Origin: an uncultured Selenomonadaceae bacterium
Lineage (GTDB): Bacteria > Bacillota > Negativicutes > Selenomonadales > Selenomonadaceae
Assembly: GCA_905234365.1 (NCBI GenBank)
Contig: CAJOHI010000007.1
Coordinates: forward strand, 11,343-75,342
DNA: 64,000 bases
Direction of reading: 5' to 3'
The position numbers were made by a program, and so were the translations under genes. Positions 17,585 to 56,739 of the stretch are shown piece by piece. The notes beneath the pieces were generated by a model. That model was not told the DNA's origin. It was given only the letters and a program-made list of their open reading frames with translations, and ran no database searches. Positions within the stretch are counted from its first letter, which is position 1. Every line of letters starts with the position of its first letter.

Positions 17585-17620
17585 TTTAAATCCTCCTTAA
17601 ATCAACATTATTAAATCATA

Positions 17621-18421: not shown

Positions 18422-18656
18422 TAGAATTATCCTCTCATTAAATTTATAATGATGTTATCATAATTTTACTAACATGTCAATATATAAAGTAAAATTTATT
18501 AAAAAGTCACTTATATTATGCTTAATTATGCGTTAGTAATAAAAAATATTCTTGTTTCCAATTTCGTAAATTATATAGGTATTAGCAAAGTTTTGGCGAA
18601 ATTTGAAGGTTAAATCGACAAAACAACATGTATTATCAGATTGAGGAGAAAAATAT

Positions 18657-20582: not shown

Positions 20583-20585
20583 CCT

Positions 20586-32306: not shown

Positions 32307-33392
32307 TTACTTATCTATTGGAATTGCATAAAGTACAGTTTCAGCAGATGAATAAGAATGATGTCTAAGAAAGAATTTGTATTTCTTTTTCTTAGTTTCA
32401 AATTGCTTTGCATAATTGTAAATATCTATAATATCGTTTTTTCTATGATATGTGCATACTGCAAGTTTAGGCATATTATTTTTTATTGTCTTCTCACTGC
32501 CTTTGAGAGCCTCTAACTCACTGCCCTCAATGTCCATCTTGATGAAAGTTACTTTTTCATCTTTAACTATATCGTCAATAGCATAAACTTCTATTTTATT
32601 ATTTGTTGTTGAATAAGAAATACTTGAAGTTGTTGGAGAAGCCGAATTTACATCAAAATACAATGTGTCTCTTTTACTCCATACCCCCCCCCTTATAACC
32701 TCAATATCCCTCATGTTGTCAGTGTTTTTTCGTAACATTGCTATATTATTTTCTAAAGGTTCAAAAGCAAAAATTTTTTTATAATTGTCATTTACAAATT
32801 CATCATATTTTAATATGGTGTCACCATTAAAAGCACCACAGTCAACATAAATTTCTTCATGAGGATTAATATTATAAGTTAACTCGTTAAAATATTGATT
32901 CTCACAAGAAACGTTTATTATATCTTCACATTCTCCAGTAGATTTTGCTTTTACTAGGGCTTTTAACGTTCTTTTTGAAAGACCATCGCCCAATGAAGTT
33001 GACATTTCAGACAATATATCATTGTTTTCACTAAGCCATTCTTCGTTCCAAGACCAAGTCCAAGCTGCATTCCAAATTATATATATTTTTTTATAACGCA
33101 TTAACGCAGGATTATTTTTCATTATTATCTTTGACTTTAAAATATTAATAAAACCATTAACTAAACTGTAATTATCAAAATCGTCAATAAAATTTGCTAT
33201 ATTTTCGACCTTAACATCATCAATAAAAGTATTAGGTTTATAATATGCTTCATCAACAACAAAAGCCGCAGTTGTTATCCCATTGTTAAATAAAAAATCT
33301 TTAATCTCTTTAGAAACAACAGAGTTTCCATAAATTAAAACAGGCTTATTTAATTTTTTTAATTCAGCAATAGTTTCTCTTTCACTCAACAT
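32307..33392 (-). CDS. FkbM-family SAM-dependent methyltransferase containing an in-frame G9 tract
   Basis: FkbM core YVDCGAFNGDT...FAFEPLENN...IKMDIEGSELEAL. GGAGG lies 7 nt before ATG 33392 (the track ORF runs to 33437 and would overlap fliI). Confidence 0.85.
   Translation of the reverse strand: MLSERETIAELKKLNKPVLIYGNSVVSKEIKDFLFNNGITTAAFVVDEAYYKPNTFIDDVKVENIANFIDDFDNYSLVNGFINILKSKIIMKNNPALMRYKKIYIIWNAAWTWSWNEEWLSENNDILSEMSTSLGDGLSKRTLKALVKAKSTGECEDIINVSCENQYFNELTYNINPHEEIYVDCGAFNGDTILKYDEFVNDNYKKIFAFEPLENNIAMLRKNTDNMRDIEVIRGGVWSKRDTLYFDVNSASPTTSSISYSTTNNKIEVYAIDDIVKDEKVTFIKMDIEGSELEALKGSEKTIKNNMPKLAVCTYHRKNDIIDIYNYAKQFETKKKKYKFFLRHHSYSSAETVLYAIPIDK
32684..32692. repeat. homopolymeric C9 (G9 on the coding strand) inside the FkbM gene
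   Basis: Counted directly: ata-ccccccccc-ttataacc. It codes VIRGGVW. This is one of only two G/C runs longer than 5 that I found in the window. Confidence 0.95.
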
Positions 33393-33417
33393 AAAATTAC
33401 CTCCATAATTAAAATTC

Positions 33418-34755
33418 TCAAGTATTATTGCCTGCAATGGCTATTAATTTTTTTTCGGTATTTTGATAAGTATCAACTTCAAAAATACCTTGCACTAAAA
33501 ATTCATTTATTTTATCAATCTTTGCTATTGCCGAATCAATCCGCTTACTGGAGCCTTTAACATAAGCACCGATATGAATTAAATCTTCAGCGTCTTTATA
33601 AACCGCCATTAAAGCACGCATATTTTGAGCTGCTTGTAAATGTTTTTTAGTTACGACTTCATTCATAACACGGCTGACACTTGCAAGCACGTCGATTGCC
33701 GGAAAGTGATTTTGTGCGGCGATTGAGCGACTCAAAACGATATGACCGTCGAGTATTGAACGAACGGCATCGGCTATTGGTTCATTCATATCATCGCCGT
33801 CAACCAATACGGTATAAATTCCTGTGATTGAACCGGTATCGGAAGTTCCGGCACGTTCCAAAAGTCGAGGCAATAAAGCAAAAACGGAAGGCGTATAACC
33901 TCTGGTTGCCGGCGGTTCGCCAATCGTTAAGCCAACTTCACGTTGCGCCATTGCAAAACGTGTTACCGAATCCATCATCAAAATAACTTTATGCCCTTGA
34001 TCTCTAAAATATTCGGCGATAGCTGTACCTGTCATTGCGCCTTTAATTCTGACGAGTGCCGGCTGGTCTGAAGTTGCAACGACGACGACGGAACGTTTTA
34101 AACCTTCCTCGCCTAAATCGCGTTCAATAAAGTCACGAACCTCACGACCACGTTCACCAACTAAAGCAATAACACTGATGTCGGCTTCCGTATTTCTTGC
34201 GATCATCGAAAGCAGAGTTGACTTACCAACACCGGAACCTGCCATAATTCCAATTCGCTGACCGTCACCTAAAGTCATTAAACCGTCAATCGCTCTGACG
34301 CCGACATATAGTGATTGATTTATTCTTGGACGTGTCAAAGGCGGCGGCGGCGGTGCCATGAGAGGATATTCAATCTTGCTAAAAATCGGACCTTTGCCGT
34401 CCATTGGATTACCGAGACCGTCAAGAACTCTGCCTAATAATTCGTCACCAACTTTGACCTGCAACATTTTTTGCGCCGCTATAACTTCACAACCTGGACC
34501 TACGCCTTGCATTTCACCAATCGCCATGAGCATGACAAAACCTTCACGAAAACCGACGACTTCAGCAGGTATTGGCGGATAAGTCTCAACTTTTGAAATA
34601 ACATAACACAATTCGCCAACACTGACAGGCGGACCTTGTGACTCAATGACGAGACCGACAACTTGAGTGACTTTGCCGGTGAGTTTAATTGTCCTTGCAT
34701 CTTTTATGACATCTATCAGCTTTTCTAAATTAATATCATTTTTAATCTTCGCCAT
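33418..34755 (-). CDS. fliI: FliI/YscN-family type III (flagellar) export ATPase, without neighbouring fliH/fliJ
   Basis: Walker A GSGVGKST, then VIALVGERGREV...MMDSVTRFAMAQREVGL...PSVFALLPRLLERAG. AGGTGA RBS plus ATG 34755 (the track ORF starts at GTG 34764). Confidence 0.85.
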   Translation of the reverse strand: MAKIKNDINLEKLIDVIKDARTIKLTGKVTQVVGLVIESQGPPVSVGELCYVISKVETYPPIPAEVVGFREGFVMLMAIGEMQGVGPGCEVIAAQKMLQVKVGDELLGRVLDGLGNPMDGKGPIFSKIEYPLMAPPPPPLTRPRINQSLYVGVRAIDGLMTLGDGQRIGIMAGSGVGKSTLLSMIARNTEADISVIALVGERGREVRDFIERDLGEEGLKRSVVVVATSDQPALVRIKGAMTGTAIAEYFRDQGHKVILMMDSVTRFAMAQREVGLTIGEPPATRGYTPSVFALLPRLLERAGTSDTGSITGIYTVLVDGDDMNEPIADAVRSILDGHIVLSRSIAAQNHFPAIDVLASVSRVMNEVVTKKHLQAAQNMRALMAVYKDAEDLIHIGAYVKGSSKRIDSAIAKIDKINEFLVQGIFEVDTYQNTEKKLIAIAGNNT

Positions 34756-38627: not shown

Positions 38628-39770
38628 ATGTTTGATGTAATTATAATCGGTGCCGGATTTGCCGGTTCAGTTTTGGCGGAAAGATTCGCAACACAGCAAA
38701 ATAAATCTGTCCTGCTCATTGAACGCCGTAATCATATTGGCGGTAATTGCTATGATGAGCGTGATGATAACGGTGTTTTAATTCATAAGTACGGTCCGCA
38801 TTTACTTCACACTGACGATGAAGAAGTTTGGAAATATCTTTCGCAATTTGCTAATTGGGACGTTTATCATCATCACGTTCAGGCAATGATTGACGGTCAA
38901 ATTGTTCCTCTGCCTTTTAACTTGAATACTCTGCATAAACTTTTTCCGACGCCGCTTGCAAATAAACTTGAATCAGCATTGCTTAATCGCTACGATTATA
39001 ATTCAAAAGTGCCAATCCTCAAGTTGAAACAATCTACGGATAAAGATTTGCGTTATCTTGCTGATTATGTCTATGAGAAAGTTTTCCTGCATTATACTGA
39101 AAAACAATGGGGACTTTCACCGGAAAATATTGAAGGTGCCGTAACTGCTCGCGTACCTGTTTTCGTCGGCCGTGATGACAGATATTTTAACGACAGATTC
39201 CAAGCTGTACCTACAAAAGGCTATACCGAACTTTTCAAGAAAATGCTGAATCACAAAAATATTAAAATTTTACTCAACACCAGATTCAACGAACTTATGA
39301 GAGTTGACGGCGATAAAATTTTCTTCCTGGATCAACCTTTTGACGGTCAAGTAATTTACACCGGTCAACTTGATGAACTTTTCAACGAAAAATTTGGTTC
39401 TCTGCCTTACAGAAGTATTGATATGAAATTTGAAATTGTAGACACTGAAAATTATCAGCCTGCAGCGGTTGTCAACTATCCGAACAATTATGATTTTACG
39501 CGAATCACCGAATTTAAAAAGATTCATCCTATTAAATCAATTACGACAACAATTTTAAAAGAATATCCGCAGGATTATGTACCTGGAAAAAATACGCCAT
39601 ATTATCCAATTTTCACCGAAGAAAATCAAAAACGCTATGAGCAATATGCCTCAGCAGTCAAAGAAGTTAAAAATTTAACTGCCGTTGGTCGACTTGCTGA
39701 ATATCGTTATTACGATATGGACGACATTGTTAAACGTGCGCTTGATGTGTTTAAAACTTTCGGCGAATAA
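38628..39770 (+). CDS. glf: UDP-galactopyranose mutase
   Basis: FDVIIIGAGFAGSVLAERFA...IGGNCYD...HKYGPHLLHT...GRLAEYRYYDMD. Confidence 0.95.
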   Translation: MFDVIIIGAGFAGSVLAERFATQQNKSVLLIERRNHIGGNCYDERDDNGVLIHKYGPHLLHTDDEEVWKYLSQFANWDVYHHHVQAMIDGQIVPLPFNLNTLHKLFPTPLANKLESALLNRYDYNSKVPILKLKQSTDKDLRYLADYVYEKVFLHYTEKQWGLSPENIEGAVTARVPVFVGRDDRYFNDRFQAVPTKGYTELFKKMLNHKNIKILLNTRFNELMRVDGDKIFFLDQPFDGQVIYTGQLDELFNEKFGSLPYRSIDMKFEIVDTENYQPAAVVNYPNNYDFTRITEFKKIHPIKSITTTILKEYPQDYVPGKNTPYYPIFTEENQKRYEQYASAVKEVKNLTAVGRLAEYRYYDMDDIVKRALDVFKTFGE

Positions 39771-39787
39771 CCGGAGGCTGAATTAAT

Positions 39788-40555
39788 TTGGACGTAAAAA
39801 TTTTAGTTGCTACGCATAAGGAATATTGGCTGCCGAATGAAGATGTTTATCTTCCAATTCACGTTGGCTGCACAGGACAGGCTAAGTTTGGATTTGTTGG
39901 CGATAATACCGGTGATAACATTGCCGAAAAAAATGCTAACTATTGTGAGTTGACCGGTTTATATTGGGCATGGCGAAATTTAGATTGCGAATATTTAGGC
40001 TTGTGTCATTATCGTCGTTATTTTGGACATAAGAATTATTTTGACGGCACTGAAAAATTGAAGCAAAAAATTTTTCAACGTGCGGATTACGAAAAACTTC
40101 TGGAAGAAAACGAAATTATCTTGCCATATCAACGGCGATACTATATTGAGACCGTACGCAGTCAATATGAACATGCTCACAGCGCTCGTGATTTGGAGCA
40201 AATTGAAGATATTATTGCAAAACATCATCCGGATTATTTAAGGTCATTTCGTGCAGTAATGAATCGGCGAAAGCTGCATTTGTGGAATATGTTTGTTATG
40301 AAAAAAAATATGCTTGATTCGTATTGCAGTTGGCTTTTCGATATATTGTTCCGCTATGAAAAATGGATGGACGAACATAACTTGAGTGAGCAAAAGTGGC
40401 GTTTATTCGGTTTCATTTCTGAGCGACTTTTAGATGTTTGGCTGTTTGGCAAGAATTTAAAAAAAGCAGAAGTTGACGTGGTTATGTTGGAAAAAATTAA
40501 CTGGTTCAAAAAAGGCAGTGATTTTCTGCGTCGTAAATTCTTTGGACGCTCATGA
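39788..40555 (+). CDS. DUF4422-family glycosyltransferase (galactofuranosyltransferase-like)
   Basis: ILVATHKEYWLP...YLPIHVG...NANYCELTGLYWAWRN...LGLCHYRRYF. It follows glf by 17 nt. Confidence 0.8.
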   Translation: MDVKILVATHKEYWLPNEDVYLPIHVGCTGQAKFGFVGDNTGDNIAEKNANYCELTGLYWAWRNLDCEYLGLCHYRRYFGHKNYFDGTEKLKQKIFQRADYEKLLEENEIILPYQRRYYIETVRSQYEHAHSARDLEQIEDIIAKHHPDYLRSFRAVMNRRKLHLWNMFVMKKNMLDSYCSWLFDILFRYEKWMDEHNLSEQKWRLFGFISERLLDVWLFGKNLKKAEVDVVMLEKINWFKKGSDFLRRKFFGRS

Positions 40556-41073: not shown

Positions 41074-41275
41074 ATATATCACCGTTAAGAATATTAGGTA
41101 TGAAAATATATGTTTTACACAAATTTTAATAAAATACTTGTAATTATTCAATATGTGTTGTAAAATAGAAAAAATATTTGGAATTTTTCTTGTATTTAAT
41201 GATCGAGGTGATTTATAATTAAAATAAATTTTTTGTCGTTGTTAATTTTGATTTGAAAGAAAGGTGATTTTTTGT

Positions 41276-44200
41276 ATGGCTGATATCTATAATGATACGA
41301 GTAATACCATTATTGCAGGAACTATAGAAAATAATTTTATTTATAATGCCGCTGCTGATAATGTTACTATTAATGGCGGCACAAATGAAGATACTATTTA
41401 TACTAACTATAGTCTCCATGTGTCTATCAATAGTGGCATTGGTAACGATTCCGTTTATAACTACCACAGCGACAGCGTAACCATTGATAGTGGCGACGGT
41501 AATGATTCTATTTATAATGACTATGGCGACTACATTACTATTAGTAGTGGCACTGGTAGTGATTCGATTTATAACTACTATGGCAAATATGTTACTATTA
41601 ATGGTGGTGACGATAATGATTCCATTACGAACTACTATGGTCACATAACTACTATTAATGCTGGCACTGGTGATGATTCGATTTATAATTACTACGATCA
41701 TGATGTCTCTATTGTTGGTAGCGACGGTAATGATTTCATTTATAACGAACAGGGTAATGCTATTACTGTCAATGGTGGCACTGGTAATGATTCGATTTAT
41801 AATTCCGGCAACTACGTTACTATTAATGGTGGTGACGGTAATGATTCCATTAATAATGTCGGCGACAACGTTAATATTAATGCTGGAACTGGTGACGACA
41901 TTATAAGCCTCAGCAGCCTTTTTTATTGTAATGTCATTAAATATGCCAATGGTGATGGTAATGATACTATCTATGGTTTTGATTCAAATGATACTATTAA
42001 TATTACAAATGGCGATTATTCAACGCTGGAAAGTGGCGATGATGTAATTATTACCGTTGACAATGCCTCAATGCTCCTAAAAGACGCTAAAGGCAAAGCC
42101 ATTAATATAGCTAAGGAAATAACTACCACCATTAACAATGGATTTTATATTTCAAATTATAATGAAAATACTTTGATTAGCGGCAGTGATTATAATGATA
42201 CTATCTATAATAACGCAGTTAGAAATGTAACTATTAATTCTGGTGTTGGTAATGATTATATTTATAATCACGAAGACAGTGTGATTATTGACAGTGGTGC
42301 TGGTAATGATTCTATTTATAGCGATCTTGGTCAATATGTCTCTATTGATGGTGGCGCTGGCGATGATTACATTTATAGCAACGACAACAAAAAAGTTACC
42401 ATTAATGGTAGCGAAGGTAATGATATTATACATCTTAGCAACTACTATGGTGAATATTCTTCTTCATATGGCAATATAATTAATTATTCTGATGGCGATG
42501 GTAATGATACTATCTATGGTTTTGATTCAAATGATACTATTAATATTACAAATGGCGATTATTCGACGCTGGAAAGTGGCGATGATGTAATTATCACCGT
42601 TGGAAATGGTTCAATGCTTCTCATAGACTCTAAAGGTCAAACTATTAAAATAATTAAAAGAATTAATGCCATTAACGACGAATTGTATATTTCAAATCAT
42701 AATGAAAATACTTTGATTAGCGGCAGTGATTATGATGATACTATCTATAATGACGAAGTTAGAAATGTAACTATTAATTCTGGCACTGGCAATGATTCTA
42801 TTGGTAACTCTTTCGGTCGTTATGTCTCTATTGATAGTGGTGCTGGTAGTGATTCAATTTATAACTACTATGGTCGCTATGTCTCTATAAATGGTGGTAC
42901 TGGTGATGATTCTATTGATAATAATTACGGCGACAGAGTTACTATCAATGGTGGCGAAGACGATGATTCAATTTATAATCGTCATGGTCGCTATGTCTCT
43001 ATAAATGGTAGTGCTGGTGATGATTCCATTACGAACGACTCCAGCGCCGCCAATGTTACCATAAGTGGTGGCGAAGGTAATGATTCAATTAGGAACTATG
43101 AAGGTTATGCCGCATCTATCAATGGTGGCGAGGGTAGTGATTCTATTTACAATTCCGGCAACTATGTTACTATCAATGGTGGTGTCGGTGCTGATTCTAT
43201 TTATTCTTCCGGCGACAGAGCTATTATTAATGGTGGCGACAGTAATGATTCCATTAATAATGCCGGCGACCACATCACTATAAATGGTGGTACTAATGAT
43301 GATTCAATTACGAACTACAGCGGCGATTATGTTAATATTGATGGTAGTGAAGGTAACGATATTATAAGTCTCAGCAACTATGCTCGTTACAGTATTATTA
43401 AATATGCCAATGGCGACGGTAATGATACTGTTTATGGTCTTAATTATGATGATACTGTCAATATCACAAGCGGTGATTATTCAACGCAGGAAAGTGGCGA
43501 CGATATAATTGTCAGTGTCGGCAACGGCTCAATGCTTCTAAAAGACGCCAAAGGTCAGACACTTAACATTATTGGCAACAAAGTTATTGATAACGTAAAA
43601 AGTAATTTTACTTACAACTCTAATAAAACAGCTATAACTCTCGATTCAGTTTTTAGTGGCACTCTTGATTCAACTGATTATGATTCAACAGTCAAAACGA
43701 TTGATGCAACTAAAGTCACAAAAGCAATTAACATTGTCGGAAACAGTCTTGCTAACACCATTAAAGGAACCTCAAAAGCTGACACCATTTATGGCGGTGC
43801 AGGCAAAGATGTTCTTTACGGCAATAAAGGTGCTGATTTTATCGAAGGTGGCGCCGGTGCTGATACCTTATTCGGCGGTAAAGGTAAAGATACTCTCGTC
43901 GGTGGCAATGGTAAAGATGTTTTCGTTTACTTTAACGGTGACGGCAGCGACATCATCACTGATTATACTGCCACTCAAGACAGAATTTTAATGCAGAATT
44001 TGGAGTCTATGACTTCTTCGCTGAGTGGTTCTGACGTGGTTTTGACGGTTGGCAAAGGCTCAATTACCGTTAAAGAAGGTGTCAATAAAGCAATATCATT
44101 AATTGATCCTGACGGCAATGATATTTATTTAATGCAAGGCTCAAGCGGTAAAGACAGCTTAACAGGAAGTGCAAGCAAAGATACAATTTATGGCAATGGC

Positions 44201-44702
44201 GGAGCTGATTACTTGAGTGGTTAACGGCGGAGCTGGTGCAGACTCTATTGAAGGTGGCGCCGGTGCGGATACTATTATCGGTGGCAAAGGTAAGGATACT
44301 TTGACGGGTGGCAAAGGCAAGAATGTCTACATTTACAACAACGGCGACGGTAAAGACATTATCACGGATTATAAGTCATCGGACAAAATTCAAATTGACA
44401 GCAGCTATTCAACGCAGGTAAGCGGTCAAGATGTAATTATTAAAGTCGGCAGCGGTTCAATCACACTTAAAGACGCGATCGACAAGAAATTAAATATTGA
44501 TACTTCGCTTAACTATATTGAATCTGCATGGTTTGCTCAAGATGACAATTTTATAACTGATGATATTGACTCAATCTTTGAAACTGCGACAAATAATTAC
44601 AATGTCGGAAGTATTGAAGTCTTAAATAATTCAACAGACATTTTAACTGACTTCAGGAAAAATGATCGAACGCTTGCAAATAATAGTAAGTGTCCTAAAT
44701 AA
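41276..44702 (+). pseudogene. very large RTX-like / beta-roll repeat surface protein (~1140 aa if continuous), frameshifted at 44217-44224
   Basis: AAAGGTG RBS plus ATG 41276, with no N-terminal signal peptide. It carries dozens of 18-19-aa units of the form V(T/S)I(N/D)(G/S)G.G(N/D)DSIYN. C-terminal classical nonapeptides read GGAGKDVLYGNKGADFIEGGAGADTLFGGKGKDTLVGGNGKD. Frame 1 ends GGADYLSG-stop. The next frame continues NGGAGADSIEGGAGADTIIGGKGKDTLTGGKGK to 44702. Confidence 0.7.
41954..42790 (+). repeat. intragenic tandem duplication (~540-543 bp period) within the RTX-like gene
   Basis: gatggtaatgatactatctatggttttgattcaaatgatactattaatattacaaatggcgattattc... occurs at 41954 and again at 42497. 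atttcaaat.ataatgaaaatactttgattagcggcagtgatta occurs at 42149 and 42689. A more diverged third copy lies near 43390-43570. Confidence 0.85.
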
Positions 44703-48629: not shown

Positions 48630-48656
48630 AAATTTACGACACGTTTCAAATAAAAA

Positions 48657-48695
48657 ACTCTCAAAAGGTTTTTAACCAAATGAGAGTCTTTTTTG
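48657..48695 (+). terminator. rho-independent terminator after lon
   Basis: ACTCTCA - 17-nt loop - TGAGAGT followed by CTTTTTTG. Confidence 0.5.
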
Positions 48696-48717: not shown

Positions 48718-49536
48718 TCACCACGCAACTATCGTTATACCATTATCTTCTGCAAGTGCTACCATTTTTTCACGCTCAACTAAAAGCGTTTTATCTGCTT
48801 CAATGGCAAGCGCTGTAGCACCGGATTGTACCATAATTTCAATAGTGTGATACCCAACAGTAGGAACGTCAAAACGATTATCCTGCTTTGGTTTTGAAAC
48901 TTTCGCGACTACTGCACCGCCGTTGGCAAGTTGACCGCCGCGAAGTATACAGGCATCAGTACCTTCAATCGCCTCAAGCGCCATAACTGCACGATTTTTT
49001 ACAACGACAGTCTGACCTATGTCAAAGCGTCCCAGTTCTTTAGCAATTCTCATTCCAAATTCCAAATCTAAACGTTCTTCGTCAGTTGGTTCACGTTTTG
49101 TAATTGTGCCGCGATGTGGCATTAACTTTCTGATTAGTGCTGTCTGGTCGAAAGTCTCCATGCCTGCCTTTGCCAATTCTCTAACAAACGCCAACATTAT
49201 AGTATCATCATTTCGATCCGGCAACGACATAATTAATTGCAACATTCTTGCATCTGGTATAACTGCACCGTTAAATAATAATTCCTTAGTGACTTTTCCA
49301 ATCATTGTAATTAATCTCAAATCCTTTGACTTGAGATAATTTAAAATTGCGTCCAGTTGTGCAACGCTAATCATTTGAAAGTCATTAGCAAATTGTGCAA
49401 TTTCCGGATCAGTTGCCGGCAGCAATCCAACTGCATAAACTTCGTAACCTAATTGCCTTGCCGCTCTTGCACATTCAACAGGCAATCTTCCTGCGCCTGC
49501 TAGTATTCCAAGTTTCTCCAAAAACTTCACTCCCAA
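48718..49536 (-). CDS. lpxI: UDP-2,3-diacylglucosamine diphosphatase LpxI (DUF1009 family)
   Basis: LGILAGAGRLP...DIGQTVVVKNRAVMALEAIEGTDACILRGG...KPKQDNRFDVPTVG. Confidence 0.8.
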   Translation of the reverse strand: MGVKFLEKLGILAGAGRLPVECARAARQLGYEVYAVGLLPATDPEIAQFANDFQMISVAQLDAILNYLKSKDLRLITMIGKVTKELLFNGAVIPDARMLQLIMSLPDRNDDTIMLAFVRELAKAGMETFDQTALIRKLMPHRGTITKREPTDEERLDLEFGMRIAKELGRFDIGQTVVVKNRAVMALEAIEGTDACILRGGQLANGGAVVAKVSKPKQDNRFDVPTVGYHTIEIMVQSGATALAIEADKTLLVEREKMVALAEDNGITIVAW

Positions 49537-49540
49537 AAAT

Positions 49541-51043
49541 TTACCTTTGATAATTTCTCGAATGAAACCAAATTGTTTTTAAATCACTATACTCGTCAAA
49601 AGAATACAAAGATTTATCTTTTCCCAATCCAGACTCTTTTACTCCTCCAAATGGAGCACTATTATCATCATTACCATAACTGTTAATATGAACTAAACCA
49701 GTCTCGATATTTCTTGCAACGTAATATGCTTCATCTAAATCATCAGTCCACACTGCTCCTGCCAACCCATAATCTGATGAATTAGCAATACTTAATGCTT
49801 CATCTACACCTTCTACAGGCAAAACAACAACAACTGGTCCAAAAATTTCTTCTACAACAACTTTTGACATTATTGAAATATTACTTATAATTGTCGGTTG
49901 AATACAACAAGCTTTTTCAGAATGCAATTTTTTATTTTGAGCTTGATAAACTTCTGCACCTTCATCTTTAGCCTGTTGAATATACTTTTGAATTTTATGA
50001 TATTGTTCAGGACTGACAACACAACCTACATTATTATCAGTATCGTAAGGGTCACCCGGCACGTAACGTTCGCATTCAAGTTTCAAATACTTTATAAAAT
50101 CATTAAACTTTGACTTATCTATAATAACTCTTGAAGGTGCAGAACAAATTTGCCCTTGATTATAAAACATATTATCAGCTAATACCTTTGCAGCTTCAGC
50201 TAAATTTGAGCAATTATTTGTAACTATATAAGGTCCTTTTCCGCCACATTCCAAAGCTACTTTCTTCATATTTGATTGACCTGAATACTCCAATATTCTC
50301 TTTCCGGTTGTACTTGAACCGGTGAAAAAAATTCCACGAACATCCTTATGCAAGGCTAATGCTTTTCCAGCTACTTCCCCATATCCTGTAACAACATTAA
50401 ACACGCCTGAAGGAATACCAGCTTCCCTAGTTAAGGCAGCAACCTTTAAAATTGACAGTGAAGACTGTTCAGCGGGTTTCATAACAATAGAATTTCCCAT
50501 AAGCAACGCAGGTGCAAATTTCCAAGCAGCAACAACCAAAGGATCATTCCAAGGTGTAATGGCGCCTACAACCCCAAGAGGAACTCTGATTATAACACCA
50601 AATTCACTACCTCTCGGTGGAATTGCCTTATCATAGTATTTATCAACAGCTTCCGCAAAATAACGAACCACTTCAATAGCTTTCGGTATAGAATCGTAAA
50701 AATAATTTTGATAAGATCTTCCCGTCTCATAAGTATCCAATAAGGCAAGTTCTTCTCTATTTTTTTCCATTAAATCTGCTAATTTTAAAAGAATAATTTT
50801 CTTTTCACTGGGAGGTAACATTGACCAAGAGCCAGAATAAAAAGATTTTTTTGCAAATTCAACTGCTTTATTAACGTCAACATCATCACAAGCAGCAATT
50901 CCTGAAATAATTAAGCCATCTATAGAAGAAATTTTTTCAATTGTTTTTCTATTTTCCGCTTCAACAAATTCACCATTAATATAAGCTCTTTTTTCAATAT
51001 TTAAGTTTTCCAACTTTTTTCTGACATTCATTTTATAAATCAT
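49541..51043 (-). CDS. NAD(P)-dependent aldehyde dehydrogenase family protein
   Basis: 500 aa: ITPWNDPL, FTGSSTTGKRI, ECGGKGP, catalytic Cys in NQGQICSAPSR, and EEIFGPV. Confidence 0.9.
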   Translation of the reverse strand: MIYKMNVRKKLENLNIEKRAYINGEFVEAENRKTIEKISSIDGLIISGIAACDDVDVNKAVEFAKKSFYSGSWSMLPPSEKKIILLKLADLMEKNREELALLDTYETGRSYQNYFYDSIPKAIEVVRYFAEAVDKYYDKAIPPRGSEFGVIIRVPLGVVGAITPWNDPLVVAAWKFAPALLMGNSIVMKPAEQSSLSILKVAALTREAGIPSGVFNVVTGYGEVAGKALALHKDVRGIFFTGSSTTGKRILEYSGQSNMKKVALECGGKGPYIVTNNCSNLAEAAKVLADNMFYNQGQICSAPSRVIIDKSKFNDFIKYLKLECERYVPGDPYDTDNNVGCVVSPEQYHKIQKYIQQAKDEGAEVYQAQNKKLHSEKACCIQPTIISNISIMSKVVVEEIFGPVVVVLPVEGVDEALSIANSSDYGLAGAVWTDDLDEAYYVARNIETGLVHINSYGNDDNSAPFGGVKESGLGKDKSLYSFDEYSDLKTIWFHSRNYQR

Positions 51044-51062
51044 CTCCGTACATCAAATTAAT

Positions 51063-52174
51063 TTAAATGAAACGATCATATTCAGGAATTATTTCAATCT
51101 TATCATGATCCATTTGCATAAGACGTATTAACTCTTTGTTAGTTTCATCACGCAAACAATGAAATTGACATTTCTCTACAGGATCTAACTCCTTCATCAC
51201 TTTTTGTCGTCTTTCACTGTGCCAAATAGTTTGAATCGAATCCTGCTTTGCATCTCCAACACAGAAATTTTTCTTGCCACGCCAATATGGACAAACATAA
51301 ACTCCGGAAGGACAAATCAACGTACGAAGATATGCTGCAGGACAAAAATGATAATCTTTTTCTTGAGAAGATTTTACACAATTCAAAGAATCATTCAAAT
51401 TAATAGCAGTTATGATTTTAAAGTTGTCAGTTTCTAATTCGTATAAACGTTTAATTTCAATTTTAGCCTCATTCATACGCTCTTGCGAATGGCGAACTAA
51501 TGAATGTACCCCCCCCCTACGTAGTTGTAACTTGGCTTTATTTCAATATAATCGCAGCCAATTTGCTTTGCAAGTACCGCTGCATCATAAATTTCTGATA
51601 TATTAGATTGTATACCAAATCCATCAGCTTCCGTGCGAATCAAAAAAGAAAAACCCAAATTTCCTCTTTTAATTTTTGCTAAATTTTTCATTCCTTCTAT
51701 TATGTGATTAAACGTAGATTTACCATCTTTTGTTGGTCTTAATTTACCGAAAGTTTCAGATGTTGCAGCATCCATTGATACTCTAGTCCAGCTTGCATAC
51801 TCAGCTATTTCATTCAAATATTTTGGTATGAAGTACCCATTTGTTGTTATACCTATTTTTATATCATGTGTTCCAAAGAATTTTATAAGTTCTCCGACTG
51901 CAGGATGTGCTAATGGCTCACCACCGCCAATTAGTATAACAGCTTTTACACCAAGGTCATATAATTCTTGTGCTAAATTCATCAAACGTTCCCTTGAAAA
52001 CGAAGTGCTGTTGCTTACTAAATCTTCACTTATGCAACCCGGACAAGCAAAATTACATACTTCTGTAGTATCCAATTCTACTACCAAAGGATTGCATTTC
52101 CATTTTTCATTTTGAAGTTGATTAACAACAAATTTTTGTTTTAATTTCCTAATAATATTCATTTTTTGTGGCAT
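51063..52174 (-). pseudogene. radical SAM enzyme with a Cys-rich C-terminal domain, split by a G9 tract (candidate phase-variable gene, OFF as sequenced)
   Basis: The N-part (51497-52174) carries CNFACPGC (CX3CX2C) and GGGEPL and ends ...SYNYVGGGYIH-stop just after G9. The C-part (51063-51476) carries CPAAYLRTLICPSGVYVCPYWRG...C...CQFHC. One extra G gives a continuous frame, ...YVGGGVHSLVRHSQERMNEAKIEIK... Confidence 0.75.
51509..51517. repeat. homopolymeric C9 (G9 on the coding strand) at the radical-SAM frame break
   Basis: Counted directly: tgaatgta-ccccccccc-tacgtag. Confidence 0.95.
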
Positions 52175-52186
52175 AAAATAACCTCA

Positions 52187-53362
52187 CTAAATATAAATAA
52201 CTTTTACTAAATCGGTAATTCTATTAATTTTATCTAACATTTCTTTCTCGCTATCGAATTTCAAAAATAAAACACCCAATTTATCTTTTAAATAATTTTC
52301 TATTTTGTACCCGGATTTCCACCATATAAATTTATCATATATATTATTTTTTATATCTTCTGAAATTATAACATCTTTTACTATGCCGTTTCGATCTCCC
52401 ATAATGCAGTGGCGACCACCATAACGTTGCGGTTCATACATTAAATAATTCTCAATCGGCATTCCACTTTCGGCTCGAACTATCATTTCAGACCAAGGGA
52501 TATCGCGAGCATATTCAACTGGTAAAGAATAAAAATCACCAGAACATCTGCGAGTTATTTCTATAATATAAGGTGTATTATTACTCAAGATATATTGAGC
52601 ATGAAAAATCCCATCAACTAGCTTTAATTCTTGTGCCAACTTTTCCATATCAAAAATCAAAATATTTTTATATTCTTCTATGTTAGTTGCTGGTCCAGCT
52701 GAAGAAGAAATAAGATAAGGATTTTTATAAGTATATTCATTGTCACTGAAGAAAGCTACGATTTTTTGATTTACAATAAAAGTTGAAAAACTGTGCATAG
52801 TACCAAATAAAAAAGGTTCAACAACAATAGTATTAACTCTTGTCATTTGAAAAGCCTTAATTATTGCTTGCTTCATTTCTTCATTATTGTTTGCTCTTGA
52901 GATACCCTTACCACCAGTTAAATCCACAGGTTTCACGATCACAGGATATTGAATTGAAGAAATTGCCTTATTTGTTTCTTCTACAGAATGAAAACTTTGA
53001 GCAATTGGAGAATGAATATTATATTTTTTAGTAATTTGTCGAAATGTATCTTTATGATGCAATTTATAAGTAGTTTCAAAGGAGTCATGACCAGGAAGAT
53101 TCATTTTTTCTGCAACATAGGATGCAGTTATAATGCCAAAATCATTTGCACATGAACAAATTGCATCAATTTTTAAATCTTTTGCCACTTCTAAGACTTT
53201 TTCTTTATCAGAAAAATCTACTTTATAATATTCATCAGAATATGAATGTCCAATTAGACTTGGATCATTTCCTGCAGTGATCACATGAAAACCCAATTTT
53301 TTGCCAGCTTCAATTAATGGTATATCAGAATGACTACCATTCAAAATTAATAATTTTTTCAA
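52187..53362 (-). CDS. ATP-grasp domain protein (carboxylate-amine ligase-like)
   Basis: 391 aa with a TTG start 7 nt after AAGGTGA (the RBS overlaps the lpxA stop). YPVIVKPVDLTGGKGIS...VVEPFL...IIEITRRCSGD is an ATP-grasp pattern. Confidence 0.8.
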   Translation of the reverse strand: MKKLLILNGSHSDIPLIEAGKKLGFHVITAGNDPSLIGHSYSDEYYKVDFSDKEKVLEVAKDLKIDAICSCANDFGIITASYVAEKMNLPGHDSFETTYKLHHKDTFRQITKKYNIHSPIAQSFHSVEETNKAISSIQYPVIVKPVDLTGGKGISRANNNEEMKQAIIKAFQMTRVNTIVVEPFLFGTMHSFSTFIVNQKIVAFFSDNEYTYKNPYLISSSAGPATNIEEYKNILIFDMEKLAQELKLVDGIFHAQYILSNNTPYIIEITRRCSGDFYSLPVEYARDIPWSEMIVRAESGMPIENYLMYEPQRYGGRHCIMGDRNGIVKDVIISEDIKNNIYDKFIWWKSGYKIENYLKDKLGVLFLKFDSEKEMLDKINRITDLVKVIYI

Positions 53363-53374
53363 TCAAACATCACC

Positions 53375-54172
53375 TTAATTTCCATCTTCGCGTCTTTCAC
53401 GGCAAATACCGCGTTCTGCGTTTCTCAAAAATCTCAAGAAGTGCTCAACTTCTTCACATGAGTCAACTTCCTGCTCAATAACCGCGATCGCTTCAGTAAG
53501 AGTCAATCCTGAACGATAGAGGATTTTATAAGCCTTTTTAATATTGTGTCTCGCCTCAAGTGGAATACCTGCACGCGAAATGCCAACGCTGTTAAGTCCG
53601 ACAACTTTGGCCGGATGACCGTCAACAATCGTATAAGGCACAACGTCCTGGACAAGTTTACTCATTCCACCGACCATTGCATTGCGTCCGATTTTAACAA
53701 ATTGATGAACTCCCGCCATTCCGCCAATTACAACTCTGTCTTCAACGATTGCATGACCGGCACAGCTTGCCAAATTACTCATTATAACATGATTGCCAAG
53801 AATACAGTTATGAGCAACGTGTATATAAGCCATTAACAGACAATCATTGCCAATGCGCGTTTCATTTTCTTCGCCGGTTGCACGATGAATTGTTGCACCT
53901 TCACGAATTACAGTTCTGTCTCCGATAAAAGTGTAACTTTTTTCGCCTTTGAATTTCAAATCCTGCGGATCTTCGCCAACTGACGCAAATTGAAAAATCC
54001 TGCAGTCTTTACCGATACTTGTCCAGCCGTGAACAACTGCGTTCGGTCCGATTTTTGAACCGTCACCAATTTCAACATTGTCACCAATAACGCAATAAGG
54101 TCCAATCTCAACGTTATTTCCAATTACAGCACTTGGCGAAATCACAGCGCTTTCGTGTATATTTGCAGCCAT
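53375..54172 (-). CDS. lpxA: acyl-ACP--UDP-N-acetylglucosamine O-acyltransferase
   Basis: Hexapeptide repeats begin at IHESAVISPSAVIGNNVEIGPYCVIGDNVEIGDGSKIGP. The C-terminal helical domain reads LNSVGISRAG...AYKILYRSGL. The start is ATG 54172 (track ORF 54199). Confidence 0.93.
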   Translation of the reverse strand: MAANIHESAVISPSAVIGNNVEIGPYCVIGDNVEIGDGSKIGPNAVVHGWTSIGKDCRIFQFASVGEDPQDLKFKGEKSYTFIGDRTVIREGATIHRATGEENETRIGNDCLLMAYIHVAHNCILGNHVIMSNLASCAGHAIVEDRVVIGGMAGVHQFVKIGRNAMVGGMSKLVQDVVPYTIVDGHPAKVVGLNSVGISRAGIPLEARHNIKKAYKILYRSGLTLTEAIAVIEQEVDSCEEVEHFLRFLRNAERGICRERREDGN

Positions 54173-54444
54173 TTTTTTGCTTCCTGCCTTTACTATCATT
54201 TTTTACACCTCTCAGCTAAATTGTAGTTTTATTTTATAATCAGTAAATTTCATTGTTTTTTCACGTATAATAAAACCGCTTTTTAACTGATTTTAAGGCT
54301 TAATAATTTATTTCTTCTCACTTTATAGAGCAGATAAGCAATTATCTTTAAATAACTCTGATTATCTTTAGTTTTTATATTTTTAAGATTAAAAATTGAT
54401 TAGAATTACATTAAAATAACATTAGAAAAATTTTTATGCAATGA

Positions 54445-54885
54445 TTATAGGTCTGATTGATGTTTTAATGCAAATTTGAAATCAGCCGAAGCAACCATTT
54501 TATCATTAACATAACCGTCAGCATGAAGAACGCCAAAATCGCCGCGAACTTTTACAATCTCTGCCTTCGTGATAAGTTGATCGCCAGGTATTACAATTTG
54601 CTTAAACTTAATATTATCCATACCGCCAAAGAGTGCAATTTTACCTCTATGTTCCTCAGGATAAAGCATTGCAACGCCGCCGACTTGTGCCATTGCTTCC
54701 AAAAGAAGTACACCCGGCATTATTGGCGTATTTGGAAAATGTCCTAAAAATTGCGGCTCATTCATAGTTATATTTTTCAAACCGGTTGCTGACTTAAAAG
54801 GCTCAATTTCTAAAATTCTGTCAACTAACAACATTGGTGGTCTGTGCGGTAAAATTTTTTTAATTTCATTGATGTCTAATTCCAT
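54445..54885 (-). CDS. fabZ: 3-hydroxyacyl-ACP dehydratase
   Basis: MELDINEIKKILPHRPPMLLVDRI...FLGHFPNTPIMPGVLLLEAMAQ. AGGAG RBS before ATG 54885. Confidence 0.95.
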   Translation of the reverse strand: MELDINEIKKILPHRPPMLLVDRILEIEPFKSATGLKNITMNEPQFLGHFPNTPIMPGVLLLEAMAQVGGVAMLYPEEHRGKIALFGGMDNIKFKQIVIPGDQLITKAEIVKVRGDFGVLHADGYVNDKMVASADFKFALKHQSDL

Positions 54886-54908
54886 AATTTTCACTCCTAA
54901 ATTTAAAT

Positions 54909-55745
54909 TCAATTAAAATCAGCAAAAATCATCTTCGCAAGCTTAGTATTGAGAGCATGACCTGAAGCGGCAGCAATTATATGACCTTTGATAATTCCTG
55001 CAAGTCGCAAATCGCCAATTACGTCAAGAATTTTATGCCTTACCAATTCATCAGAATAAATTAAATCATTCAGCCAGCGTTCATCGTTATATACGATAAC
55101 ATTTTCTAAAGTGCCGCCGAGACCTAAACCCATTGAGCGCAACGCTTCAATTTCTTTTTCGTAGGCAATAGTTCGTGCAGGTGCAATTTCTTTTTCGTAA
55201 ACATCATCGTCAATAACAAAATCTTCGTATTGAATGCCGACAAGCGGATGCGGATTCACGGAAGTAAAACTGATTCGCAAACCGTCATAAGGCAGAGCAA
55301 TTATAAATCGGCGACCTTCTGAATTTAAATCATCGACGCGATAAATTTTATCAATAACAATTTCTTTACGTTCTGCTCCTTGCTCCTCAATGCCTGCCGA
55401 CTTTATGAGATTAAAAAAATCAATAGAATTGCCCATCATTACGGGAGGTTCTTCGGCGTCAAGTTCAACTATGCAGTTATCAATTTTTTGAACATGTAAT
55501 GCACTCATTAAATGCTCAATAGTAAAAACCTTTGCGCCATTTTTTTCAAGCGTTGTTGCTCTGACTGTTGTCGTTACATTCTCTGCTGCTGCTAGTATTT
55601 GCGGACTATTTGGTAAATCAACACGTTTAAAAATGATTCCGCTGTCAACAGGTGCGGATTTTAATTTCATCGTCACTTGTTGACCTGAATGTAACCCTAT
55701 ACCTGTGCAGGTTACTTCACTTTTCAACGTTGTTTGTTTTTGCAA
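54909..55745 (-). CDS. lpxC: UDP-3-O-acyl-N-acetylglucosamine deacetylase
   Basis: QKQTTLKSEVTCTGIGLHSGQ...TIEHLMSAL...HKILDVIGDL...SGHALN. AGGAGG lies 8 nt before TTG 55745 (the track ORF runs to 55766). Confidence 0.93.
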   Translation of the reverse strand: MQKQTTLKSEVTCTGIGLHSGQQVTMKLKSAPVDSGIIFKRVDLPNSPQILAAAENVTTTVRATTLEKNGAKVFTIEHLMSALHVQKIDNCIVELDAEEPPVMMGNSIDFFNLIKSAGIEEQGAERKEIVIDKIYRVDDLNSEGRRFIIALPYDGLRISFTSVNPHPLVGIQYEDFVIDDDVYEKEIAPARTIAYEKEIEALRSMGLGLGGTLENVIVYNDERWLNDLIYSDELVRHKILDVIGDLRLAGIIKGHIIAAASGHALNTKLAKMIFADFN

Positions 55746-55809
55746 TATAAATTCCTCCTGCACCAAAATTATACAATAATTTTAACATGTTCAAATTAAT
55801 AATTCAATG

Positions 55810-56739
55810 TTAATAAATATTATTCTTAAAATTATTTTTCATTTCCTCAACTTCCTCCGGTGTAAATTCCTCTCTCATTGACTTCCACCTGTCATGCAGC
55901 CAAAACCATTGCTCAGGATATTTTTTAATATGTTCTTCAATGAGCGTTGCAAGCTGCTGTGTTGTCCGCTTTATATCTTCACGCTTGTTTTTGGTTTTTT
56001 CAACATAAATTGCCGGCTGTACTATTAAAGTATGTGTGCCGTCTTCATTTCTGTGCATGAATGCCGGAAAGATAGGAACATTTTTAAATCTTGACATTGA
56101 GGCGGCACCAGGCATGTAATTTGTCGGCTCATCAAAAAAATTGACTATAACGCCGTCATGTCGATTGGTATCTTGATCCATTATGAGACCGATAAACCAG
56201 CCTTCGCCAAGCATTTCAAACATCTCACGAACTCCGCTTTTATAAGTTATGTGCATACCGATTAGAGTTCGATACTCGTTAATAAATTTATCCATGCCGC
56301 TTGACTTTTGCTTCTTCGCAACGCCAACAAGAGATATTCCATATTGAGCAAAGGCGCCGCCCATGAGTTCCCAATTATCGCTGTGACAAGTTGCAATTAC
56401 CGCTCCTTTGCCTTCACGATTCGGCGAATTGATATAATCTGTCAAATAGTGCAGACCTTCAATTTTAACGTGAGATTCCATTTTATCTTTGAGAACCGGA
56501 AAGCGTAAAACTTCAAAAAGTATTGATCCGAATTGTACAGCACTTGCCTTTGAAATTCGTTCTGCTTCAGTGTCATCAACTTTCAAGCAGCGTTTAATAT
56601 TTTCATGTGACATCTTCTTTCGGCGTTTAGGTAAAAATGGCCAGATAATCTGTGCAATTAACCAGCCGATTTTTTGACATAACGACCAAGGTAATAAGCA
56701 AACAATTTTACTAATCAACATTACAAAATAATATGACAA
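55810..56739 (-). CDS. lipid A biosynthesis (Kdo)2-lipid IVA acyltransferase family protein (LpxL/HtrB-like)
   Basis: 309 aa with an N-terminal TM helix and the catalytic HSDNWE (HX4E) motif. PEQWFWLHDRWK is typical of this family. Confidence 0.8.
   Translation of the reverse strand: MSYYFVMLISKIVCLLPWSLCQKIGWLIAQIIWPFLPKRRKKMSHENIKRCLKVDDTEAERISKASAVQFGSILFEVLRFPVLKDKMESHVKIEGLHYLTDYINSPNREGKGAVIATCHSDNWELMGGAFAQYGISLVGVAKKQKSSGMDKFINEYRTLIGMHITYKSGVREMFEMLGEGWFIGLIMDQDTNRHDGVIVNFFDEPTNYMPGAASMSRFKNVPIFPAFMHRNEDGTHTLIVQPAIYVEKTKNKREDIKRTTQQLATLIEEHIKKYPEQWFWLHDRWKSMREEFTPEEVEEMKNNFKNNIY

Follow-up and report, generated by a model that had tools for sequence, protein, structure and literature searches.

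Among the described systems that come closest to the locus analyzed here are the Arn (PmrHFIJKLM) system and the Fuc4NAc branch of the enterobacterial common antigen (ECA) pathway (RmlA/RmlB, WecE, WecD and WecF), in which WecD is the N-acetyltransferase. The Arn enzymes modify lipid A with 4-amino-4-deoxy-L-arabinose (Ara4N) by way of undecaprenyl phosphate, and there is a report of Ara4N on lipid A within the Selenomonadaceae, in Pectinatus. In the desosamine pathway (DesI/DesII) the radical S-adenosylmethionine (SAM) deaminase DesII acts on thymidine diphosphate (TDP)-4-amino-4,6-dideoxyglucose (PMC11434129), and in Neisseria, where pgl genes are phase-variable, the ATP-grasp domain of PglB2 is held responsible for the N-glyceroyl amino sugar GATDH (glyceramido-acetamido-trideoxyhexose) (PMC11130364). 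We have analyzed a stretch of 64,000 nucleotides from an uncultured Selenomonadaceae bacterium (contig CAJOHI010000007.1, positions 11,343 to 75,342, from here on the 64-kb window), in which genes for an ATP-grasp ligase, a radical SAM enzyme and an aldehyde dehydrogenase (ALDH) lie between the lipid A genes lpxA and lpxI. Our reading, to which we would give a probability of roughly one half, is that this trio forms a horizontally acquired, phase-variable tailoring cassette that would place an amide-linked substituent on a surface amino sugar, with lipopolysaccharide (LPS) as the likeliest target. In kind it is a combination of an Arn- or ECA-like amino-sugar pathway with a poly-G contingency gene, built around an uncharacterized trio of enzymes.

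Genes were called from the open reading frame (ORF) listing and from Pfam and NCBIfam scans of the window (Table 1). These scans bear out the order that a preliminary description, made from the sequence alone, had given for the minus strand: LpxL-like acyltransferase, lpxC, fabZ, lpxA, ATP-grasp, radical SAM, ALDH and lpxI. The genes flanking the cassette are genuine lpxA and lpxI by their family models, the NCBIfam LpxI model scoring 134 bits, under its cutoff of 400. As already described, the gaps from lpxA to lpxI with the longest ORFs are 12, 12, 19 and 4 nt, and the stop codon of lpxA (TAA) overlaps the ribosome-binding site of the next gene. This site, AAGGTGA, precedes by 8 nt the TTG with which the ATP-grasp gene starts. 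If the starts of the public gene calls are taken, the third and fourth gaps grow to 31 and 19 nt, so that every junction measures at most 31 nt. The sequence scan found no terminator-like site between lpxA and lpxI, and the hairpin that follows lpxI, with a folding energy of -21 kcal/mol and a 12-bp stem followed by UUUUUU, is likely a bidirectional terminator closing the unit. At the other end a gap of 245 nt parts fabZ from lpxA, and therefore the compact unit is lpxA-grasp-rSAM-ALDH-lpxI and not the whole lpx block. The earlier claim that the trio is closely packed with Raetz-pathway genes stands for lpxA and lpxI and stops at this gap, where transcription of the unit from lpxA to lpxI probably starts. 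We have also considered an RNA element or attenuator in the gap and rejected it (no Rfam match at E<=1; fold z-score -0.98, not more stable than shuffled sequences). A promoter scan gave 44 sites against 33.5 expected, with matches in the gap that are all weak, and is uninformative in such AT-rich DNA. From this packing we infer that the trio is co-transcribed with lpxA and lpxI. The same arrangement, G9 tract included, is found in two independent metagenome assemblies, one (L001) identical over 9 kb and the other (L002) at 99.5%.

The first enzyme of the cassette is a member of the ATP-grasp superfamily, with Pfam scores above threshold for GARS_A (53.2 vs 27), CPSase_L_D2 (43.5 vs 19.8) and ATP-grasp_3 (39.2 vs 23.2). 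Its AlphaFold2 model, with a predicted local distance difference test (pLDDT) of 88, has the three-domain fold and matches ATP-grasp enzymes in Foldseek with E-values down to 1e-30. The best match is 4dim, an uncharacterized Anaerococcus protein; L-amino-acid ligases occupy ranks 2-4, beginning with 3vot (BL00235) and 4wd3 (RizA), and behind them come PurT and biotin carboxylases. Sequence comparison agrees (phmmer E 5.5e-13 against 3vot), at only 13-21% identity to the L-amino-acid ligases in the Foldseek alignments, and no sugar-carboxylate amidoligase appeared among the 18 phmmer PDB matches or the 50 listed Foldseek matches. The enzyme is thus closest to the L-amino-acid ligases in predicted fold and in sequence, and an amino-acid carboxylate as donor is a prediction from that proximity. 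After 4dim, these ligases (BL00235, RizA, BacD/YwfE) are its nearest solved folds and sequence relatives; they make free dipeptides, whereas the genomic partners of the trio suggest an amino sugar as the nucleophile. The family is moderately large and taxonomically wide: clustering at 90% identity gives 2639 clusters (E<=1e-5), and clustering at 50% gives 380 (E<=1e-30). A metagenome scan with the protein of the window returned one distant locus. Besides, one protein from a Logan contig (P0113, 52% identical to the ATP-grasp protein) carries an N-terminal GtrA/DPMS transmembrane domain (64 bits) and may be a natural fusion that ties the ligase to polyprenyl-phosphate sugar handling, although as a single sequence it could also be a gene-call artefact.

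The second enzyme belongs to the radical SAM superfamily (PF04055, 72.1 bits vs 29.5) and has the motif C40-x3-C44-x2-C47 (CxxxCxxC), together with a GGGEP motif taken to be the SAM-binding one. The downstream ORF of this gene has a weak match to the SPASM domain (PF13186, 27 bits vs 21.5), and four C-terminal cysteines are invariant in 20 homologues; since four cysteines suffice for one auxiliary cluster, the domain would be twitch-like and not a full SPASM. Such an auxiliary cluster is typical of radical SAM dehydrogenases. The NCBIfam scan placed the protein in no curated subfamily. With the BlsE model (TIGR04466) it reached 42 bits, the cutoff being 400, and there was no match to a DesII model, so that membership with DesII or BlsE is not found in sequence. 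The fold search was made with the model of an intact relative, 79% identical (pLDDT 86), and its top Foldseek matches were SuiB, DesII, BlsE and anSME. With DesII and BlsE the likeness is at the level of the fold only (Foldseek E about 1e-13, template modeling (TM) score about 0.6). SuiB is a peptide maturase, BlsE is named as the cytosylglucuronate decarboxylase of blasticidin S biosynthesis, and anSME oxidizes a side chain to an aldehyde.

The third enzyme is a full-length ALDH (PF00171, 489 bits over profile positions 1-461) with the catalytic Asn, Glu and Cys in the motifs PWN(164), ECGGK(265) and GQIC(297). Its best NCBIfam match, PuuC, reaches 495 bits against a cutoff of 850, and the protein is therefore no PuuC equivalog. 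The closest PDB chains are KauB (6b4r), an aldehyde dehydrogenase family protein (5iuu), which we take to be AldC, and a gamma-glutamyl-gamma-aminobutyraldehyde dehydrogenase (4lih), presumably PuuC. By these matches it is probably an NAD(P)-dependent enzyme, closest to the PuuC/KauB/AldC-type dehydrogenases of aliphatic and amino aldehydes.

The same trio is present in other genomes with a set of partners that is missing here. We have surveyed 35 loci of GTDB species representatives that carry the ATP-grasp gene, counting partners within 9 kb. A radical SAM gene was found in 33 of the 35, an ALDH gene in 29, a DegT transaminase in 23, a family 2 glycosyltransferase (GT2) of about 320 aa also in 23, and a small EamA protein in nine; the loci lacking partners lie mostly on short contigs. 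The trio proteins are 50-70% identical in amino acids across Lachnospiraceae, Desulfobacter, gammaproteobacteria and Syntrophaceae, and the commonest gene order is rSAM-ALDH-ATP-grasp. The DegT partners are WecE equivalogs (571-623 bits vs a cutoff of 375, in four clusters from three phyla), the GT2 partners match PgfS and ArnC best, and the EamA proteins ArnF and ArnE. A gammaproteobacterial cluster (L007) has in addition RmlB (465 vs 365 bits), an RmlA-like gene and a WecF-like GT56. Large membrane proteins are found in many clusters: YfhO-domain proteins in Lachnospiraceae and Eubacterium; in Desulfobacter and gammaproteobacteria those adjoining type IV pilin genes are PMT-like or unclassified and measure 650-723 aa. 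In the monoderm Lachnospiraceae, Eubacterium and Ruminococcus the trio adjoins YfhO-type transferases, and one Lachnospiraceae cluster lies in a flagellin/Maf island; monoderms have no LPS. No GNAT acetyltransferase was present in the Pfam-listed gene calls of the full clusters L003, L004, L005 and L007. Accessory genes of some clusters code for B12-radical-SAM enzymes, methyltransferases or a MaoC/GNAT fusion. Specifically, a B12-binding radical SAM protein of about 650 aa occurs in or beside the trio in eight species (L028, L032, L033, L036, L037, L039, L047 and L022), which suggests an added tailoring of the same substituent, perhaps a C-methylation.

Beyond the module itself, remoter relatives of the ATP-grasp protein (32-34% identity) also adjoin sugar aminotransferases. 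One is found in a plasmid of Bacteroides, close to an Arn-like set, and is a loose analogue only. We have also considered a plasmid of Brachyspira hyodysenteriae, whose glycan genes have been linked to colonization and virulence (PMC4267127), as a carrier of the same module: a 34%-identical ATP-grasp gene is found there beside DegT, radical SAM/SPASM and rfb genes. Its radical SAM protein belongs to another family and its transaminase is no WecE equivalog, and we have kept it as a loose analogue only. Our literature searches found no published description of the trio. On these comparisons the trio is a conserved, apparently uncharacterized module of a general amino-sugar pathway, not one specific to lipid A. 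The contexts of the homologues, which the preliminary description had proposed as a check, are consistently those of cell-surface glycans and not unrelated ones, and the same contexts (monoderms, pilin and flagellin loci, and non-lpx sites in Selenomonadales) tell against its proposal of a modification specific to lipid A or core. A quite different possibility is non-glycan metabolism of small molecules, for instance the oxidation of a polyamine-derived amino aldehyde in the manner of PuuC, followed by ligation to give an N-acyl polyamine or a dipeptide-like compound. The best matches of the ALDH (PuuC and KauB) and the resemblance of the ATP-grasp protein to dipeptide-forming ligases would fit, and so would the Selenomonadales trio standing alone with no glycan genes nearby. 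The near-constant link to WecE, GT2 and flippase-type genes in other phyla argues against it, as do the degree of identity among the trio proteins, which argues for a conserved substrate, and an ALDH score well under the PuuC cutoff; we find this explanation highly improbable.

With the amino-sugar reading, the pathway in the genomes that carry the partners would run as follows. RmlA and RmlB would make dTDP-4-keto-6-deoxyglucose, which the WecE-type enzyme would transaminate to a dTDP-4-amino-4,6-dideoxyhexose of the Fuc4N or Qui4N type. The ATP-grasp enzyme would then form an amide through an acyl-phosphate intermediate, N-acylating the 4-amino group; it is given this role because the clusters read in detail have no GNAT and the ATP-grasp gene is always adjacent, the ATP-grasp domain of PglB2 being a precedent. 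The radical SAM enzyme and the ALDH would carry out a two-step oxidation, from a C-H or alcohol to an aldehyde and on to a carboxylate, creating or finishing the acyl group; the acid could be oxidized first and then ligated, or the acyl group could be oxidized once it has been attached. The ArnC-like GT2 would load the product on undecaprenyl phosphate, the ArnE/F-like proteins would flip it, and the GT-C-type transferase would pass it to a surface acceptor. In the genome of the window the cassette, presumably co-transcribed with lpxA and lpxI, would decorate LPS (lipid A, core or O-chain), and slipped-strand changes in the G tract of the radical SAM gene would toggle it. The order of the reactions, their substrates, the position of the amide (N-acyl and not on a sugar carboxyl) and the LPS target are what we infer from the enzyme classes and the gene neighborhoods. 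The earlier idea of a carboxylate made by the ALDH and then an amide made by the ATP-grasp enzyme keeps its fit with the enzyme classes; its part that does not agree with the data is the kind of ligase, nearest to L-amino-acid ligases and unlike any known sugar-carboxylate amidoligase. Two other roles have been tried and rejected. The radical SAM enzyme as an anaerobic substitute of GnnA or ArnA, making a keto sugar, does not go with partners that are WecE equivalogs and with a cluster having RmlB and an RmlA-like gene, which point to the ordinary dTDP route; and the ATP-grasp enzyme as a replacement of LpxD independent of acyl carrier protein (ACP) does not go with a family that is common in monoderms, beside WecE.

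The comparison with the described systems gives both likenesses and differences. As in Arn, clusters elsewhere surround the trio with a 4-aminotransferase, an ArnC-like GT2, an ArnE/F-like EamA protein and a GT-C-type transferase, and in both systems the sugar would be an N-acylated 4-amino sugar carried by polyprenyl phosphate. Unlike Arn, the transaminase is a WecE equivalog working on a dTDP-6-deoxyhexose and not ArnB, there is no ArnA, with the trio in its place, and ArnD is missing in most clusters. With the ECA branch the trio clusters share the WecE equivalogs and, in L007, also RmlB, the RmlA-like gene and the WecF-like GT56; the difference is that the clusters read in detail have no GNAT for the role of WecD, and have the ATP-grasp and radical SAM genes, with or without ALDH, instead. 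This replacement implies an N-acyl group other than acetyl. PglB2 is alike, by its description, in that an ATP-grasp domain takes the place of an acetyltransferase on an amino sugar, and differs in being fused to a phosphoglycosyltransferase; we know of no radical SAM or ALDH partner for it. The desosamine pathway also pairs a 4-aminotransferase making TDP-4-amino-4,6-dideoxyhexose with a radical SAM enzyme, and DesII is a top structural match (PMC11434129). However, the trio enzyme has no sequence membership there and has a SPASM/twitch-like, Cys-rich tail, the Des pathway has no counterpart of the ALDH or the ATP-grasp enzyme, and the trio clusters have no second aminotransferase. Finally, the ATP-grasp amidoligases that make glucuronamide in the Campylobacter capsule are similar in forming an amide in surface-glycan biosynthesis, but there the carboxylate is on the sugar, while the partner sugar of the trio has neither a carboxyl nor a CH2OH group.

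These last two systems bear on an alternative, the route of the preliminary description or a DesII-like variant of it, in which the sugar itself is worked on by the three enzymes one after another: the radical SAM enzyme would produce a carbonyl or aldehyde (by oxidation of a CH2OH or by a DesII-like rearrangement of the 4-amino sugar), the ALDH a carboxylate, and the ATP-grasp enzyme a uronamide or a C-carboxamide-branched sugar. In its favor, the most frequent gene order (rSAM-ALDH-ATP-grasp) follows the order of the reactions, the four invariant C-terminal cysteines suggest an auxiliary cluster, and the best structural matches include BlsE as well as DesII, whose substrate is a nucleotide sugar (PMC11434129). 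Yet the product of WecE, a 4-amino-4,6-dideoxyhexose, has no CH2OH to oxidize, the ALDH is nearest to dehydrogenases of small aliphatic and amino aldehydes, the ATP-grasp enzyme is nearest to L-amino-acid ligases with no sugar-carboxylate amidoligase among the matches given above, and the clusters without ALDH would be left without the carboxylate. We consider action on the sugar improbable, and retain N-acylation of the amino sugar as the preferred reading.

The radical SAM gene is not intact in the window, where a G9 tract splits it into two ORFs of 225 and 137 aa. A tract of G10 restores a protein of 370 aa, the same length as in the relatives (G7 also restores the frame), and the protein so repaired keeps 120 of the 121 invariant columns of the family, with none of the 39 that follow the tract lost, from which we conclude that the gene has not decayed. 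Three lineages of Selenomonadaceae have a tract at these codons: it is G9 and off (window, L001 and L002), G10 and off (L008 and L009) or G11 and on (L014 and L053), which agrees with the earlier proposal of a switch through the G tract. The nearest tract-free relatives and all the distant homologues encode the GG motif with mixed codons and have no tract. The GGG loop encoded by the tract has a pLDDT below 50 in the model, compatible with tolerance to changes of length. Only two G/C tracts of at least 8 nt exist in the window. What is found here is then what characterizes a contingency gene: a homopolymer of at least 8 nt inside a coding sequence, with on and off lengths among relatives. The pattern supports slipped-strand phase variation, with the radical SAM gene probably OFF in the sequence of the window; transcriptional slippage or ribosomal frameshifting may take place at the G9 tract instead. 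The likeness is to the contingency genes for lipooligosaccharide, capsule and flagellar glycosylation of Campylobacter, Neisseria and Haemophilus, where poly-G tracts of in-frame and out-of-frame lengths lie in glycan-modifying genes. The difference is that here the organism is a diderm Firmicute of the rumen or gut and that the tract is in a radical SAM gene, in an operon ending in lpxI.

The interrupted frame could also be the mark of a decaying passenger, either by an inactivating mutation or by an assembly error, in a cassette with no current function. The window and the two independent assemblies of this lineage all have the gene out of frame, and the partner genes are not in the window. 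Against this, the ATP-grasp and ALDH genes are intact, all the invariant radical SAM residues after the tract are kept, tracts of 9 to 11 G stand at the same codons in and out of frame in the three lineages while other homologues avoid the tract, and the same G9 in separate assemblies argues against a random sequencing error. For us decay carries little probability. Apart from the cassette, the second tract of the window (32684-32692, C9 on the plus and G9 on the minus strand) is in frame at codon 249 of a minus-strand ORF (32307-33437) coding for an FkbM-type methyltransferase (PF05050), with the gene of a FliI-like ATPase next to it. This could be a second gene subject to phase variation, and one related glycan cluster also has methyltransferases of the FkbM type.

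In Selenomonadales the order of the genes is grasp-rSAM-ALDH, and the trio stands alone with flanks that vary by lineage. In L008, L014 and L053 it is flanked by an MFS transporter and an unknown 318-aa protein, and in L010 and L015 by an MsbA-like ABC exporter and EIIA-man. Among the Selenomonadales loci compared, the placement between lpxA and lpxI is found only in the lineage of the window. The MsbA-like protein of L010 has been considered as a link to LPS and not counted (best NCBIfam match MsbA, 396 vs a cutoff of 602). The GC content at third codon positions (GC3) of the cassette is 0.18-0.23, about two standard deviations under that of the ORFs of the window (0.303 +/- 0.048), the values for lpxA and lpxI being 0.335 and 0.308, and suggests that the cassette was inserted horizontally and fairly recently. 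A search for scars of such an event showed no meaningful repeats, direct or inverted, on its flanks.

A recent insertion also fits an alternative in which the chemistry is the one proposed and the lpx site is incidental, a permissive and well expressed place for genes that would modify a glycan other than lipid A or core (flagellin, pilin, S-layer, or a sugar of the O-chain or capsule). Elsewhere the settings are indeed not those of LPS (YfhO in monoderms, type IV pilin genes, flagellin with a Maf protein), and in the closest relatives the neighbors of the trio are not lpx genes but either flagellar genes with an MFS transporter or an ABC exporter. On the other hand the very short junctions and the overlap of stop codon and ribosome-binding site tie the expression of the cassette to lpxA and lpxI, to place a gene prone to frameshifts upstream of lpxI would carry a risk unless the insertion is tolerated or under selection, and no other feature of the window indicates a different acceptor. 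We hold an incidental site to be rather unlikely. The position in the operon, in this one lineage, makes LPS most probably the decorated molecule, as an unproven assignment, while a lipid A or core target in particular, drawn from the same position, is likewise unproven. A more specific version, namely a radical SAM-dependent decoration of lipid A or core with an amide-substituted 4-amino-4,6-dideoxyhexose, similar in function to Ara4N and switched by poly-G, in which the trio would be a widespread new route of N-acylation replacing the transferases that use acyl-coenzyme A or acyl-ACP, is one that we regard as doubtful.

Several observations weigh against the reading of the trio as a phase-variable cassette for an LPS amino sugar. 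WecE, the ArnC-like GT2, EamA and GT-C proteins are all missing from the window by tblastn and Pfam listings, the sole tblastn match to the partners being a weak one to an unrelated generic GT2 (23292-24329), so that no Arn-like system of aminotransferase, GT2, flippase and GT-C is encoded with the cassette within these 64 kb. The unrelated sites of the trio in other Selenomonadales mean that the lpx position is specific to this lineage and could be incidental. The ALDH is missing from the clusters L007/L026, L040, L041 and L043, and the proposed three-step order is therefore not universal. The structural likeness to DesII and BlsE is moderate, and peptide-modifying SPASM enzymes score equally well. 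Finally, the tract is G9 in both independent assemblies of the lineage, with no variation of its length seen within the populations in them.

Table 1. Features of the lpx locus and of its G tract (positions in the 64-kb window, except for the last two rows, given in the loci named)
Feature	Position	Strand	Evidence or remark
LpxL-like lipid A late acyltransferase	55810-56739	-	PF03279 170.6 bits; upstream in the lpx block, outside the cassette unit
lpxC	54909-55766	-	PF03331 300.5 bits
fabZ	54445-54912	-	PF07977 103 bits
fabZ-lpxA intergenic region	54200-54444		AT-rich, 245 nt
lpxA	53375-54199	-	NCBIfam equivalog NF003657, 368 bits vs cutoff 226
ATP-grasp gene	52187-53362	-	ATP-grasp Pfam domains above threshold; 391 aa
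Radical SAM gene, interrupted	51063-52174	-	ORFs 51497-52174 and 51063-51476 (SPASM fragment)
G9 homopolymer tract (C9 on + strand)	51509-51517	-	within the radical SAM gene, out of frame
ALDH gene	49541-51043	-	496-500 aa; PF00171 489 bits
lpxI, UDP-2,3-diacylglucosamine hydrolase	48718-49536	-	PF17930 (LpxI_N) 119.6 and PF06230 (LpxI_C) 168.7 bits vs 25
Hairpin with A-run and T-run flanks	48651-48692		between convergent lpxI and lon
Orthologous G10 tract, L008	11851-11860		frame lost
Orthologous G10 tract, L009	2997-3006		frame lost

As for the remaining contents of the window, the LpxL-like protein matches lauroyl acyltransferase families best in NCBIfam, under their cutoffs, and lpxB, lpxD, lpxK and kdtA are not found in the 64 kb. 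The named close relatives of LpxA and Lon come from metagenome-assembled genomes labeled 'Selenomonadaceae bacterium'. A very large protein with GGxGxD/DSI-type repeats is split on the plus strand into ORFs of 986 aa (41264-44224) and 161 aa (44217-44702). The gene is undivided (1148 aa) in otherwise identical ENA contigs, the window being about 20 nt shorter than L001 and L002, with which it aligns over 2.7 kb without a mismatch and with a single gap, and the split is either an assembly difference or a repeat-mediated indel. The defense-type genes upstream in the window (16730-23177) code for a CAP12-PCTIR TIR-domain protein and for a Type III restriction-modification pair, whose methylase is at 18657-20582 and whose helicase-type restriction subunit is at 20586-23177. 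Beside purD and the gene of a C-type-lectin-domain protein there are genes for a UDP-galactopyranose mutase (GLF) and a DUF4422 protein (38628-40555). As the enzyme that supplies UDP-galactofuranose, GLF would imply a galactofuranose-containing glycan in this organism.

If the proposed reading is true, the trio would mark out a family of surface-sugar modifications that has gone unstudied and that dozens of species of Firmicutes, Desulfobacterota, Gammaproteobacteria and other phyla possess; to our knowledge, radical SAM chemistry is rare in the tailoring of cell-surface glycans. An ATP-grasp enzyme standing in the place of the acyltransferase on the product of WecE would extend the repertoire of N-acyl amino sugars. 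For the organism itself, a commensal diderm Firmicute, it would mean an unusual, phase-variable chemistry of the envelope, with possible effects on resistance to phages and antimicrobial peptides and on recognition by the host.

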